Shown here: positions 27,862-55,694 of the stretch, in pieces
Layout: every line of letters starts with the position of its first letter
Position numbering within the stretch: the stretch's first letter is position 1
DNA from: a candidate division CPR3 bacterium GWF2_35_18
Lineage (GTDB): Bacteria; Patescibacteriota; CPR3; GWF2-35-18
Direction: 5' to 3'
Assembly: GCA_001771135.1 (NCBI GenBank)
Contig: MESW01000003.1
Span: forward strand, 72,719 to 136,718
DNA length: 64,000 nt
Notes under the pieces: model-generated
Seen by the model: only the letters and a program-made list of their open reading frames with translations
What the model was told of the DNA's origin: nothing
Databases searched by the model: none
Position numbers and translations under genes: made by a program

Positions 27862-28257
27862 TTAAAACTTTACGAAAAACATTTTTGCTTTTTTAATGTC
27901 GTCTTCAATTTGCCAAATCAGCTCTTGCTCGGAATGAAACCTATGCATCTCTCGGATTTTTTTCCAAAAAGAAACCGTGATCAGCTTTCCATAGATACTT
28001 TCTGAAAAATCAAAGAAATAGATATCAATGCGTGGTCTATTATCAAAAAAGGTTAATGGAGCACCAATATTAGCAACACCTTTATATTCTTTCCCTTCCA
28101 AAACAATCGTTACAATATAAACTCCATCGGAAGCAAATACATTACCTTTGGGATAATCAATATTTGCTGTTGGAAAGCCTAATTTCCGTCCGCGACTAAT
28201 ACCTTTGATCACTTTGTTCGATAAAACAAATAGTGGTTTATCTTTAATATCTTTCAT
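27862..28257 (-). CDS. Monofunctional riboflavin kinase (RibF C-terminal-domain type)
   Basis: GRKLGFPTANI motif. 131 aa with no FAD-synthetase domain. Confidence 0.75.
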   Translation of the reverse strand: MKDIKDKPLFVLSNKVIKGISRGRKLGFPTANIDYPKGNVFASDGVYIVTIVLEGKEYKGVANIGAPLTFFDNRPRIDIYFFDFSESIYGKLITVSFWKKIREMHRFHSEQELIWQIEDDIKKAKMFFVKF

Positions 28258-35581: not shown

Positions 35582-35660
35582 TGGTGACCCCGGAGGGATT
35601 CGAACCCTCGATTTTTGGGATGAAAACCCAGTGTCCTAGGCCGCTAGACGACGGGGCCAC
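35582..35660 (-). tRNA. tRNA-Glu (anticodon UUC), CCA encoded
   Basis: Manual fold. Acceptor stem GTGGCCC/GGGTCAC, T-arm GAGGG-TTCGAAT-CCCTC, anticodon loop TT-TTC-AT with U33 and A37, and a 3' CACCA end. Confidence 0.8.
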
Positions 35661-51562: not shown

Positions 51563-51961
51563 ATGAAAGAAACGCTTCAAACGATTAAAGTTTTATACGT
51601 AGAGTCAGAAAATGGAATTGCCGGATCCCATGAGGCTTTCGATAGATTAGAAAAACCTCTTCCGACTTTAAGGGGCCGTAAATTTTATGGTACTTATGAT
51701 TCTGAAAATGGGATCTATCGCGCCTGTGTAAAATTAGAGATTGAAACTGATAAACCTAAAGAGTGGGGTTTAAAAATCACCAACATTCCTGGTGGTAAGT
51801 ATGTCAAAGATAAAATAAAAAATTGGGTAGGAAAAGAAAACCTGATCGGAGAAGTTTTTACGAAACTTTCTAAAAGCCATAGAACAGATGAAGGAAGACC
51901 CAGCATTGAGTTTTATCGCAGTCAAAGAGAGTTAATCCTCTATCTTCCAGTTATGGATTAA
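51563..51961 (+). CDS. GyrI-like / effector-binding-domain small protein (tentative)
   Basis: 132 aa. The alpha/beta pattern and length are compatible with GyrI-like ligand-binding domains. No strong motif. Confidence 0.3.
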   Translation: MKETLQTIKVLYVESENGIAGSHEAFDRLEKPLPTLRGRKFYGTYDSENGIYRACVKLEIETDKPKEWGLKITNIPGGKYVKDKIKNWVGKENLIGEVFTKLSKSHRTDEGRPSIEFYRSQRELILYLPVMD

Positions 51962-53058
51962 CTGATTCCGAAGATGACTTTCCTAGATTGAAGGCTTAAA
52001 TGCTCAAGTTTAATATTAATTATTTTTATATTGTCCTGACGACTCAAATTGTTAATTAAATCGGATACCTTTTCACTCCATTCAATTGCTATAAGATTTT
52101 TCGGTTGAAAATATTTTTTGGATAAATAATCTCTGAGATCTTCATTTTTTGTCAAACGCCAGGTATCGATATGAATCAAAGTACTATTTTTACCATGATA
52201 TTCACGCACAATATTAAAAGTAGGAGAAACTATTTCTTCTTTTATTTCCATGGCTTTACCCATTCCTTTTGTAAATTGAGTTTTACCTGCTCCTAGTTCT
52301 CCCTGTAGAGAAACCACTACACAATAATTTTTTAACAATTTCTTTATCTCATTTTTATACAAATCTGAAGCGATTCTCTGGGTTACCTTTTTACTATCAG
52401 ATATTTCTTCCTGAATTAATTGGTTTAACTTTGATTTCAAAGCAATTTGTCCCTGTCTTAAAATTTTATAATCATTGATTGTAGTTTCAATGACAGTCGA
52501 AGGCGGGTTTTGGGGAAGTTTTCCGGCATCTAAAAATAGATCAATAATTTGAGCTTGCTTATCTGAAATATTATTAATGACATCGTTAAATGAATATGGG
52601 GTTTTTTTTGATGCTGAATTTGCGGAGGTTGCTGTAATTGGTTTTCCAAATTTTTTAATTAATGAAAGTGTTGATTCATAATTTGGAATTCGAACACCCA
52701 ATGTTCCATTTTCAGCTTCTAATCTTTGATCCACAATATGTTTCGATTCTGAAATAACGGTTAAAGGTCCAGGCAAAAAGTTCTGATATAGATTTAAAGC
52801 TTTTTCGTTTAAAATAACATATTGCTCGGCCATTTTTTGGTTCAAAACGGCAATTGAAACTGCTTTTCCTTCAGGACGTTTTTTATAAATTAATAATTTC
52901 TCTACTGCTTTAAAATTCGTAGCATCAACTCCCACACCATAACATGTTTCAGTAGGATAAATAATAAGACCTCCCTGATTTAAAATGTCGACTGCTTGTT
53001 TTTTCCAATTATAATTTTTTTGAATATTTATTATTTTCATACAATTTAATTCTAACAA
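51958..53058 (-). CDS. TsaC/YrdC-TsaE fusion protein (L-threonylcarbamoyladenylate synthase domain plus TsaE P-loop ATPase domain). The likely true start is the ATG at 53040; the track start at 53058 is TTG.
   Basis: N-terminal YPTETCYGVG (YrdC/Sua5 family) and C-terminal GELGAGKTQFTKG (TsaE/YjeE Walker A). Adjacent to tsaD. Confidence 0.75.
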   Translation of the reverse strand: MLELNCMKIINIQKNYNWKKQAVDILNQGGLIIYPTETCYGVGVDATNFKAVEKLLIYKKRPEGKAVSIAVLNQKMAEQYVILNEKALNLYQNFLPGPLTVISESKHIVDQRLEAENGTLGVRIPNYESTLSLIKKFGKPITATSANSASKKTPYSFNDVINNISDKQAQIIDLFLDAGKLPQNPPSTVIETTINDYKILRQGQIALKSKLNQLIQEEISDSKKVTQRIASDLYKNEIKKLLKNYCVVVSLQGELGAGKTQFTKGMGKAMEIKEEIVSPTFNIVREYHGKNSTLIHIDTWRLTKNEDLRDYLSKKYFQPKNLIAIEWSEKVSDLINNLSRQDNIKIINIKLEHLSLQSRKVIFGIS

Positions 53059-53078
53059 AAAAAGACCCTTTATGGGTC
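53055..53078 (-). terminator. Rho-independent terminator (minus strand) immediately 3' of the hammerhead-like element and about 15 nt upstream of the tsaC-tsaE ATG
   Basis: Hairpin GACCC-ATAAA-GGGTC followed by TTTTTTTG on the minus strand. Confidence 0.6.
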
Positions 53079-53088
53079 ATTAATATTA

Positions 53089-53147
53089 CCTCTGTTTCGG
53101 CCTGATCTTCCCAAGCCTCATCAGGTGCTATCTTCGCACTACAGAAG
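53089..53147 (-). ncRNA. Candidate type III hammerhead ribozyme (stem III open; stems I and II closed)
   Basis: Minus strand 5'-CUUCUGUA|GUGC-GAAGAUA-GCAC-CUGAUGA-GGC-UUGGGAAGAUCAG-GCC-GAA-ACAGAGG-3'. Core nucleotides C3-A9 (CUGAUGA), G12A13A14, A15.1-U16.1 and H17=A (GUA cleavage site) are all present. Stem III is 7 bp (CUUCUGU/ACAGAGG) and stem I is GUGC/GCAC. Confidence 0.55.
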
Positions 53148-53273
53148 TAAACATTATAAGTTACTACATTTAGAAATAATTGTCAAGAGATTTTCAGATT
53201 AAAGAATATCATGTTTTATAATATTTAAACAGATTTTTAGAATTATAGACGGTTTTTTGAAAAAATTGAATAT

Positions 53274-53282
53274 TGGTATAAT
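53274..53282 (+). promoter_or_regulatory. Extended -10 promoter element TGGTATAAT on the plus strand in the typA/tsaCE intergenic region. No obvious downstream plus-strand gene.
   Basis: Perfect TGnTATAAT match. Confidence 0.3.
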
Positions 53283-53584
53283 ATAGGACAATTGTCGGAC
53301 ATTTACCGCCTTTAATATGACTAATAATATCTTTTTAACTTATGTCTCAACCTCTAAAAAATGAATAAAATATTTTCACCAAACTCACAACGTTAGAGTT
53401 ATATCTCCGCAAACGACCGCATGGTTGTTTGTAGTACGGGAGAATACCCATACAACTATCTATATCAAATCTTTTTTTATGAATGGTGGTATCTCAAGAA
53501 AAAAGTTAACAATGCAAGGCCTGGTTTAAACGTAACAAACACTACTACCGTGTCCTTGCCTTTCTCTCTGTTTTTAGAGATATT

Positions 53585-55435
53585 TTAACTATTGTAATGG
53601 GATCTTTTACGCATCACATGATCCAAAATGCGTTTACGAATGCGAACATTTTTGGGGGTTACTTCAAGTAGTTCATCATCAACGATAAAATCAAGGGCTT
53701 GTTCCAAACTTAAGGATGTTGCTGGGCTTAAAATTCTTTTTACACCTTCACCTTTAGAACGATTGTTAGTTAATTTCTTTTCCTTGCAAACATTAATTTC
53801 AATATCATCCGGTCTAGGATTAATGCCTACTACCATTCCACTATAAACCTGCTCCCCTGCTCCAACAAAAAGAGTTCCCCGATCTTGAGCGTTAACAAGT
53901 CCGTAGATAATTGTTTCTCCGGATTCATAGGATACCAATGCTCCAGATCGAAGTTGAGGCAATGTCTCTCCTCTTTTTTCATATCCAATTAAATACGAGT
54001 TCAAAGTGATTGTTCCCTTTGTAGCTGTCATTAATATATTTTGTAATCCAATCATGTTTTGGCTGGAAATTTTATATACTAAATTAAACATTTCATTACG
54101 ATCTGGTTTCATGGAAAGCAGAGAACCCTTTCTTTTTCCAAATTCTTCAGTCACTGCGCCCACATATTCTTTATCTATTAGAACTGTCACTTCTTCATAA
54201 GGTTCACAGATCTCTCCCTCAATCTTCTTGAAAACCACCTGCGGTCTTGAAACCTCTAACTCATAACCTTCTCGACGCATAGTTTCTATGAGTATTGCAA
54301 GGTGTAACTCTCCACGTCCACTTACTATAAAACCATTTCCATGTTCCTCTTCTTCAATCTTCAATCCCACATTAATCTGTTTTTCATGTAAAAGACGTTC
54401 GCGAATCTGACGGGAAGTTGTAAACTGTCCTTCACGACCAGCAAAAGGACTAGTATTGGGACCAATTGTAACTTTAATTGTTGGCTCAGTTACTTCAATT
54501 GCCGGTAAAGGATCGGGGTGCTCGGCATCGGTAACTGTTTGTCCTATTTCAAGCACGTTAATTCCCGCCAAAGCAATAATATCTCCACTTTTTGCTTCTT
54601 CAACTTCTTGGCGAACTAAACCATTACTAGTATAGACTTTGGTGATATAAAAATTACCCAGATTCCCATTTTTATTAACAACAGCCACTTTCATTCCCTT
54701 TTTCATAATTCCCTGATGAATTTTTCCTATACAAAGTCTCCCTACAAAATTATCATAATCAAGGGTAGAAATCATCATCTGAAAAGGCTTATCTTCGTTA
54801 ACTGCACTGTTAGGAATTTCTTTCAAAATTGTTTCAAAAAGAGGATGCAAATCTCCCTGTGTTTCAGCACTATAATTATCCGGATTTTTAAGGAAAACCT
54901 TACCATCGCGACCTACTCCATATAAAACAGTAAAGTCTAATGATGCTTCATCGGAAGATAATTCCAAAAAGAGATTTTCCACTTCACGCAAGACCTCTTC
55001 CGCTCGAGCATCTTTTTTATCTATCTTATTAATTACAAGAATAATTTTGAGTTTAGCTTCAAGAGCTTTTTTTAAGACAAAACGGGTTTGAGGTAATGGC
55101 CCTTCAACAGCATCAACAAGAAGGAGTGCTCCACTGGCCATATTTAAAACTCGTTCCACTTCAGAACCAAAATCAGCATGCCCAGGCGTGTCAATTATGT
55201 TTATTTTATTTGATTCGTAAAAAACCGCCGTATTTTTAGCCAGAATCGTAATTCCTTTTTCACGTTCTAAATCGTTGGAATCCATGATCAAAGTTTCCTG
55301 CATCTCTTTCTGATTATCTCGGAAAGTATGGGTCTGCTTGAGCATCGCATCAACAAGTGTGGTTTTTCCATGATCAACGTGAGCGATTATCGCAACATTG
55401 TAAATATTCATATATTCTACTTTCTTTAAATACAT
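53585..55435 (-). CDS. typA: Translational GTPase TypA/BipA. The probable true start is the internal MNIYNVAIIAHVDHGKTT.
   Basis: G1 AHVDHGKTT, G3 DTPGH and G4 NKID motifs. EF-G-like domain organisation. 616 aa. Confidence 0.9.
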   Translation of the reverse strand: MYLKKVEYMNIYNVAIIAHVDHGKTTLVDAMLKQTHTFRDNQKEMQETLIMDSNDLEREKGITILAKNTAVFYESNKINIIDTPGHADFGSEVERVLNMASGALLLVDAVEGPLPQTRFVLKKALEAKLKIILVINKIDKKDARAEEVLREVENLFLELSSDEASLDFTVLYGVGRDGKVFLKNPDNYSAETQGDLHPLFETILKEIPNSAVNEDKPFQMMISTLDYDNFVGRLCIGKIHQGIMKKGMKVAVVNKNGNLGNFYITKVYTSNGLVRQEVEEAKSGDIIALAGINVLEIGQTVTDAEHPDPLPAIEVTEPTIKVTIGPNTSPFAGREGQFTTSRQIRERLLHEKQINVGLKIEEEEHGNGFIVSGRGELHLAILIETMRREGYELEVSRPQVVFKKIEGEICEPYEEVTVLIDKEYVGAVTEEFGKRKGSLLSMKPDRNEMFNLVYKISSQNMIGLQNILMTATKGTITLNSYLIGYEKRGETLPQLRSGALVSYESGETIIYGLVNAQDRGTLFVGAGEQVYSGMVVGINPRPDDIEINVCKEKKLTNNRSKGEGVKRILSPATSLSLEQALDFIVDDELLEVTPKNVRIRKRILDHVMRKRSHYNS

Positions 55436-55621: not shown

Positions 55622-55694
55622 TGAGCCGCCTGGGACTCGAACCCAGAACTTACAGCTTAAAAGGCTGTCACTCTACCGATTGAGTTAGCGGCCC
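55622..55694 (-). tRNA. tRNA-Lys (anticodon UUU), CCA not encoded
   Basis: Manual fold. Acceptor GGGCCGC/GCGGCTC, anticodon stem ACAGC/GCTGT with loop CT-TTT-AA, T-arm CTGGG-TTCGAGT-CCCAG. Confidence 0.8.

Follow-up and report, generated by a model that had tools for sequence, protein, structure and literature searches.

A probable type III hammerhead ribozyme in a minimal transcription unit of its own, next to the tsaC-tsaE fusion gene of CPR3 bacteria

The 64,000-nt stretch of DNA analysed here, referred to as the window, belongs to contig MESW01000003.1 of candidate division CPR3 bacterium GWF2_35_18. On its minus strand, the typA/BipA gene (53585-55435, identified by Pfam matches) is followed by a co-directional fusion gene, tsaC-tsaE (51958-53040; Sua5/YrdC plus TsaE, Pfam PF01300 and PF02367; tsaCE below), and further downstream by tsaD. 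The tsaCE start codon, ATG at 53040-53038, was set by homologues whose proteins begin MKIINIQ or MERINIK. Reading the sequence between typA and tsaCE directly, we found a complete type III hammerhead motif at 53152-53084 on the minus strand, preceded by a predicted promoter (P1) and followed by an intrinsic terminator. In our assessment it is probably a genuine self-cleaving ribozyme, carried by this CPR3 genome in a minimal, autonomous transcription unit. The argument draws on the anatomy of the motif, its folding, and its conservation with covariation in six lineages.

From position 53152 the motif reads GUUUACUUCUGU-A, GUGC-GAAGAUA-GCAC, CUGAUGA, GGCUUGG-GAAGA-UCAGGCC, GAA and ACAGAGGUAAUA. 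The 5' strand of stem III (GUUUACUUCUGU, 53152-53141) ends in U16.1 and pairs with the 3' strand (53095-53084), in which A15.1 comes first; the helix has 10 contiguous pairs including A15.1-U16.1, where the initial annotation of this DNA had counted 7 bp. The predicted cleavage site, in a GUA triplet, lies between A17 (53140) and G1.1 (53139). Stem I is a 4-bp hairpin, GUGC-GAAGAUA-GCAC (53139-53125), just as annotated, and is present in the minimum-energy fold. The core strand C3-A9, CUGAUGA (53124-53118), aligns to the core of Rfam family RF00008, and stem II (53117-53099), earlier described as a 3-bp hairpin, comprises 7 bp including two G-U pairs, with G10.1-C11.1 as its first pair. The remaining core residues G12, A13 and A14 (GAA) occupy 53098-53096. 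All the core elements named in the initial annotation (CUGAUGA, GAA, the A15.1-U16.1 pair, and A at H17 with a GUA site) were thus located. In the minimum-energy folds of the window RNA and of its closest homologue described below (L046), stem III is open and stems I and II are closed by loops, which is the type III topology.

A scan of 1.2 kb against 4227 Rfam families returned RF00008 (Hammerhead_3) with 29.0 bits and E=8.3e-4, or about 0.04 when scaled to the whole window, and the alignment covered the full length of the model (positions 1-54). RNAfold gives the hammerhead three-way junction as the minimum-energy structure (z=-3.2 for the core, z=-4.2 when flanks are included), and none of 200 shuffled sequences folded as well as the real motif. 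A custom descriptor, composed of the hammerhead core and three stems of at least 3 bp each, matched the real window once, compared with 0.2 loose matches per dinucleotide-shuffled window; stems of at least 4, 5 and 7 bp were reached in 0 of 200 shuffles. The GGGAAG and GNRA-like loops had also suggested signal recognition particle (SRP) RNA, 6S RNA or another known small RNA, and this was rejected when a permissive Rfam scan of 52500-53700 gave only Hammerhead_3 above noise. Likewise dismissed was a competing helix within the motif, CCUGAU/AUCAGG, which was favoured in no fold and was inconsistently conserved.

Relatives were gathered from the contigs of the nearest TsaCE clusters and from one metagenome pattern scan. 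Six distinct members of the family were obtained: the window and the loci L046, L005, L006 (equal to L007), L008 and L009. Strain variants of the source genome (L002-L004 and L060-L063), 99.97-100% identical to it, were uninformative and were set aside. Contig MESZ01000048.1 has a single mismatch to the window in 3541 bases. The TsaCE protein of the window is 100% identical to Joint Genome Institute (JGI) sequences and clusters at >90% identity with proteins annotated as 'candidate division CPR3 bacterium', while the TsaCE proteins of the six lineages share a mutual identity of only 53-60%. The hammerhead unit is present in all five of the closest TsaCE clusters. Within the DNA fetched, it was not found in the next four clusters examined, among them Levybacteria-type relatives (51-54% identity). 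From promoter to terminator the window and L046 are 87% identical, compared with 75% for typA and 69% for tsaCE, and the remaining spacer can hardly be aligned.

The catalytic core is constant across this divergence. CUGA-N-GA, GAA, A15.1-U16.1 and G10.1-C11.1 are unchanged in all six members, and the C15.2-G16.2 pair is likewise invariant. N7 can be U or C. At H17 the six members have A, A, C, A, C and U and never G, so that the GUA triplet of the window corresponds to GUA, GUC, GUA, GUC and GUU in the homologues. MAFFT applied to the full RNAs misaligned stems I and III owing to loop insertions, and that alignment was not used. Instead, a loop-trimmed alignment of five sequences was used to build a covariance model, which then guided the alignment of all six; this alignment still misplaces the L005 core. 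In it, 91.9% of cells are paired, compared with 28-47% when the partner columns are slid. Both-sided changes occur in nine pairs, comprising 6 of the 12 in stem III and 3 of the 7 in stem II, and the observed covariation score was reached by 0 of 500 column shuffles; the trimmed five-sequence alignment agrees. The initial annotation had looked to relatives for co-variation in the stems, and stems II and III supplied it, with none in stem I. That stem forms in every member and keeps GUGY/GCAC in all six, varying only from C-G to U-G, so that covariation speaks neither for nor against it. The loop II motif UGGGAAG is kept in five of the six. Loop I measures 7 nt in the window and 16-34 nt in the relatives, and loop II carries a 25-nt insertion in L006.

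The family covariance model finds a single copy in the window, and no sequence similar to the unit was detected in phage and plasmid collections. All 9 viral-contig matches to the general core pattern proved to be coding-sequence coincidences without a stem II. The metagenome pattern scan yielded 32 loci, with L046 as the sole family member; the others were discarded as unrelated type III hammerheads sharing GUG/GCAC or as chance matches. A scan of genome contigs with the TsaCE protein added one irrelevant Bacteroidota locus only. As a separate observation, several of the unrelated type III loci (L042, L031, L034, L047 and L030/L052) carry a second, weaker hammerhead match on the opposite strand, and L049 holds two identical copies in tandem (662-728 and 1766-1832), 1.1 kb apart. 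Such both-strand and tandem arrangements are typical of viroid-like or retrozyme-like elements.

Sequences flanking the motif point to a dedicated transcription unit. A perfect TTGACA (53186-53181, minus strand), the -35 box of P1, begins exactly 34 nt 5' of the first stem III base in six of six loci, and 17 nt past it lies a TAnnnT hexamer in each of them: TAACTT in three, and TATAAA, TACTAT and TAATAT in the others. In the window this putative -10 box, TAACTT at 53163-53158 as read from the sequence, overlaps a TATAAT at 53158-53153. A simple promoter scanner made no call for the P1 -10. A G occupies the outermost stem III base, 5-6 nt past the -10 hexamer, in all six members. Because the covariation of stem III extends to positions 7-10 from the junction, the outer bases of this stem would be part of the RNA; and because the TATAAT-like hexamer drifts in position between loci, it is the weaker candidate for a functional -10. 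The TATAAT that the initial annotation noted 5' of the motif is therefore present, but TAACTT is more likely to function as the -10 box, with a predicted start at G53152, where stem III begins. The leader upstream of the cleavage site would then be 13 nt long in the window and 12 nt in L008.

Downstream, the hairpin GACCC-AUAAA-GGGUC followed by U7 (53078-53057, minus strand) was called by a terminator scanner, confirming the GACCC/GGGTC hairpin and T-run described initially. An equivalent hairpin with U6-7 stands 5-20 nt past stem III in each of the six loci, and all six RNAs form it in their minimum-energy folds whether or not the 13-nt leader is included. The predicted transcript (53152-53057, 96 nt in the window and 179 nt in L005) consists of hammerhead plus terminator and has no further content. 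The suggestion of a discrete small transcript with its own promoter and terminator thus gains support from the fixed TTGACA spacing, the terminator, the conservation and the covariation in six lineages, all read at the sequence level.

The position of the unit is as constant as its structure. In every member it lies immediately 5' of tsaCE (of a NUDIX-tsaCE pair in L006) and points in the same direction. The upstream neighbour differs: the window and L046 have typA, L005 has an opposite-strand transfer RNA (tRNA) gene with a UPF0102 gene before it, L008 a divergent radical-SAM gene, L009 a HARE-HTH gene and L006 a short open reading frame (ORF) without identification. Since the downstream genes are constant and the upstream genes vary, the unit appears tied to the operon for the N6-threonylcarbamoyladenosine (t6A) modification of tRNA, and a role in processing a typA/tsaCE message is set aside.

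Expression of tsaCE itself seems to begin immediately after the terminator. An extended -10 box directly adjoins the terminator U-run in four of the six loci. In the window this putative promoter (P2) is TGtTAGAAT (53057-53049, minus strand), its TGn formed from the last T of the U-run and the following G; TGTTAGAAT, TGTTAATAT and TGTTATAAT are the corresponding boxes of L005, L046 and L006. The P2 box is 8 nt before the tsaCE ATG, and tsaCE has no Shine-Dalgarno (SD) sequence; its mRNA is therefore probably leaderless and driven by P2. About half of the ORFs in the window have no SD sequence. Several of them (at 28257, 35463, 38549, 39303, 51438, which is tsaD, and 55892) carry a TATAAT-like box 7-10 nt before the ATG, a pattern suggesting that leaderless mRNAs are frequent in this CPR3 genome.

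Other features surround the unit. The palindrome TGTC-N-GACA (9 bp, 53293-53301, plus strand) has a single occurrence in the 64-kb window. There it stands 107 nt upstream of the hammerhead promoter, and it recurs 40 nt upstream in L046 (963-971) and 23 nt upstream in L005 (1329-1337); in the window and L046 it is embedded in a longer stretch of conserved sequence. The palindrome resembles an operator, possibly one serving a divergent plus-strand promoter (TTGAAA at 53257). The spacer from typA to the hammerhead unit (53187-53584, about 400 nt) is unusually long for a compact genome and somewhat richer in GC at 53350-53500; it gave no Rfam match and holds no ORF conserved in L046. At the far end of tsaCE, a 132-aa ORF without a Pfam match (51563-51961, plus strand) converges on the fusion gene and overlaps its stop by 4 nt, and a convergent gene is found there in relatives too, sometimes encoding a HIT/DcpS_C protein. 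Two tRNA genes, 55622-55694 and 35585-35658 (both minus strand), are the only Rfam matches of the window above gathering thresholds. The former lies upstream of typA; in L005, where typA is absent, a tRNA gene of equivalent position and orientation adjoins the hammerhead unit on its upstream side.

We propose the following course of events. Driven by a sigma-70-type promoter P1 (TTGACA, 17 nt, TAACTT), transcription would begin at the outermost stem III base, G53152, and the nascent RNA would fold into the hammerhead. The 2'-OH of A53140 would then attack the adjacent phosphate, releasing a 13-nt 5'-triphosphate leader with a 2',3'-cyclic phosphate end. The remaining RNA of about 83 nt would carry a 5'-OH, start inside stem I and end at the terminator near 53057. 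As the U-run of the terminator runs into the extended -10 box of P2, transcription from P1 would end on top of P2. Self-cleavage would exchange a 5'-triphosphate for a 5'-OH on the short P1 RNA, as on any transcript reading through the terminator, and the fate of these RNAs would depend on that change of 5' end. As to function, the most likely role of the hammerhead is in our view one in cis on the promoter region of the t6A operon, a proposal we hold tentatively. Possible ways in which tsaCE could be affected are that P2 is occluded or fed, that RNA turnover is controlled, or that read-through RNA is trimmed. A further step, for which we would claim only a low probability, is that the hammerhead constitutes the entire product of a dedicated gene regulating the t6A tRNA-modification operon in CPR3 bacteria. 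In that case the 5'-OH body, or the 13-nt triphosphate RNA with its cyclic-phosphate end, would decide the outcome, and the upstream palindromic operator or binding of TsaC might modulate it. As a corollary, the L005 RNA would be an active five-way-junction hammerhead that tolerates an insertion of 60 nt.

Several observations weigh against a functional, self-cleaving unit with the role proposed here. The RF00008 score of 29.0 bits for the window, and that of 29.1 bits for the L046 homologue alone, fall short of the gathering cut-off of 48.5 bits, a curation threshold tuned to seed sequences and not a biochemical criterion; a default Rfam scan of the window did not report the hammerhead, giving the two tRNAs as its only matches, and a joint scan of four homologue contigs came back empty on account of its filters. 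The covariance-model test put forward in the initial annotation was thus not passed when taken on its own, so the hammerhead call is carried by the comparative data. Stem I shows no compensatory change among the six members. L005 contains a 60-nt insertion of two hairpins (1455-1515), placed exactly between A9 and G10.1 in an otherwise intact core and predicted to yield a five-way junction, and this should disturb the catalytic core; we know of no natural hammerhead with an insertion at this point. For fast cleavage at physiological Mg2+, natural hammerheads depend on tertiary stabilisation by contacts of loop I or stem I with loop II. Across the members there is no consistent Watson-Crick pairing between loops I and II: such pairing is possible in L008 (UCACC/GGUGA) and in L009 (8 bp), and reaches at best 3 bp in the window and L046, the same as in shuffled sequences, in a screen covering canonical contacts only. 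The stem III duplex is 10-12 bp long with a dG of -8 to -17 kcal/mol at 37 C, and a helix so long and stable may keep the 13-nt leader bound after the cut or allow its re-ligation, leaving it less plain what cleavage would achieve. Only 3 of the 6 positions of the putative -10 box TAACTT agree with the consensus. A terminator/antiterminator switch or attenuation riboswitch, which could have connected the ribozyme to termination, was rejected: none of the six RNAs has a competing helix, no link between ribozyme and terminator was seen, and Rfam scans gave no riboswitch or leader match above noise. Finally, the start site, P2 and leaderless expression are predictions from sequence, and what points to a role in cis is the conserved position of the unit.

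Some of these features would also suit an RNA that is shaped like a hammerhead but no longer cleaves itself, retained for instance for protein binding or as a promoter-proximal regulatory RNA. The Rfam score below threshold, the missing loop-loop pairing, the L005 insertion inside the catalytic core with the rest conserved, and a stem III long enough to keep the cleavage products together are all compatible with it, as is the conservation of GUGY/GCAC in stem I and UGGGAAG in loop II beyond catalytic need. A candidate partner is TsaC, whose YrdC fold is reported to bind double-stranded RNA. However, every catalytic nucleotide has remained invariant while the stems were turned over by compensatory change, and the core varies only at N7 and at H17, which is never G. 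Exactly these two positions are free under the hammerhead mechanism, and a three-way junction kept for its structure alone would not show such a pattern. We therefore judge loss of cleavage unlikely. Another reading is a ribozyme situated in the 5' untranslated region of the tsaCE mRNA, with a leaky or attenuating terminator, P1 as the operon promoter, and a leader trimmed to give a 5'-OH mRNA, much like a natural version of the synthetic RiboJ insulator or the product of glmS cleavage. The order of parts (promoter, type III hammerhead, hairpin, ORF) is the one expected, the ORF begins 17 nt past the U-run in the window and 30-45 nt past it in L008 and L009, and the unit precedes the first gene of the operon even where that gene encodes NUDIX. 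Such an arrangement is nevertheless rather doubtful, given that the hairpin with U6-7 is a canonical intrinsic terminator in six of six loci without a competing fold, that an extended -10 box follows it, and that the SD-less tsaCE fits the leaderless pattern of the window, which a long hammerhead leader would defeat.

The initial annotation had raised the alternative that the hammerhead is a processing site in a typA-tsaCE co-transcript and separates the two messages. Clustered hammerheads in prophages have been proposed to cut polycistronic RNAs (PMC3088659), and typA, motif and tsaCE are indeed co-directional in the window and in L046. In the other four of the six lineages (L005, L006, L008 and L009), however, a gene other than typA lies upstream (in L008 on the opposite strand), whereas the tie to the downstream (NUDIX-)tsaCE persists. 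A poorly conserved spacer of about 430 nt separates typA from the motif, the terminator intervenes between ribozyme and tsaCE, and the perfect TTGACA at a fixed 34 nt in six of six loci indicates a dedicated start; message processing is accordingly very improbable. Least credible of all is that the motif matches by chance, or was imported by a mobile element, a prophage or a viroid-like replicon. Many bacterial hammerheads do occur near integrases or prophages (PMC3088659), and the loose form of our descriptor produces its 0.2 chance matches per 64 kb. Against this stand synteny and conservation with covariation in six lineages, a single copy among housekeeping neighbours, the lack of similar sequences in the phage and plasmid collections, and the coding origin of the viral pattern matches. 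The reading of a self-cleaving type III hammerhead with its own promoter and terminator accordingly remains the one we favour.

Hundreds of bacterial hammerheads have been reported, many near integrases or prophages and sometimes flanking genes, with functions that are unproven (Perreault et al. 2011, PMC3088659). The CPR3 unit shares with the type III hammerheads of RF00008 the residues C3-A9 and G12-A14, the A15.1-U16.1 and G10.1-C11.1 pairs, a NUH site and the topology. It differs from them in lying outside any prophage, repeat or viroid context, as a single-copy chromosomal element with a promoter at fixed distance and a terminator of its own; in its unusually long stem III of 10-12 bp; and in the insertions of 10-30 nt accepted by stem I and loop II, with 60 nt at A9/G10.1 in one member. 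The HHphage variant of the haloviruses HF1 and HF2, located 13 nt before the start codon of a helicase gene (PMC3088659), resembles it in standing immediately 5' of a protein-coding gene, a placement suggestive of a gene-proximal role. HHphage, in contrast to the CPR3 unit, is viral, associated with archaeal hosts and dependent on high salt, carries core insertions, and has no described promoter or terminator dedicated to it.

Comparison extends to self-cleaving RNAs of other kinds. The glmS ribozyme of Gram-positive bacteria resides in the 5' untranslated region of its mRNA, and its 5'-OH cleavage product is degraded by RNase J1. Both it and the CPR3 unit are bacterial chromosomal self-cleaving RNAs 5' of a housekeeping gene that convert a 5'-triphosphate into a 5'-OH, as predicted in the CPR3 case. 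Unlike the CPR3 unit, glmS has an unrelated fold, uses a metabolite cofactor and lies in an mRNA leader without an intervening terminator; no ligand pocket or switch is evident in the CPR3 RNA. RiboJ, a synthetic insulator, places a type III hammerhead derived from the satellite RNA of tobacco ringspot virus (sTRSV), together with a hairpin, between promoter and ribosome-binding site. The order of promoter, short leader, type III hammerhead, hairpin and gene, with removal of the promoter-derived leader, is the same in both. RiboJ, however, is engineered and its hairpin is not a terminator, whereas the CPR3 hairpin ends in U6-7 and is followed by a separate putative promoter.

A literature search retrieved no paper connecting hammerheads with the candidate phyla radiation (CPR) or Patescibacteria. 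We class the unit described here as a new, clade-restricted family within a known class of ribozymes, and not as a new kind of element; its layout as a stand-alone gene is unusually clean. Whereas most bacterial hammerheads sit in prophages (PMC3088659), this family is single-copy in a streamlined CPR genome of about 1 Mb and has sharp promoter and terminator boundaries. The case indicates that the Rfam threshold misses genuine hammerheads in candidate phyla, and L005 offers a natural core-insertion variant of biochemical interest. A construct of about 130 bp, covering P1, the hammerhead, the terminator, P2 and the start codon, lets the effect of self-cleavage on the expression of a neighbouring gene be tested. 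Across deep divergence, CPR3 bacteria have kept this unit beside the same housekeeping operon.

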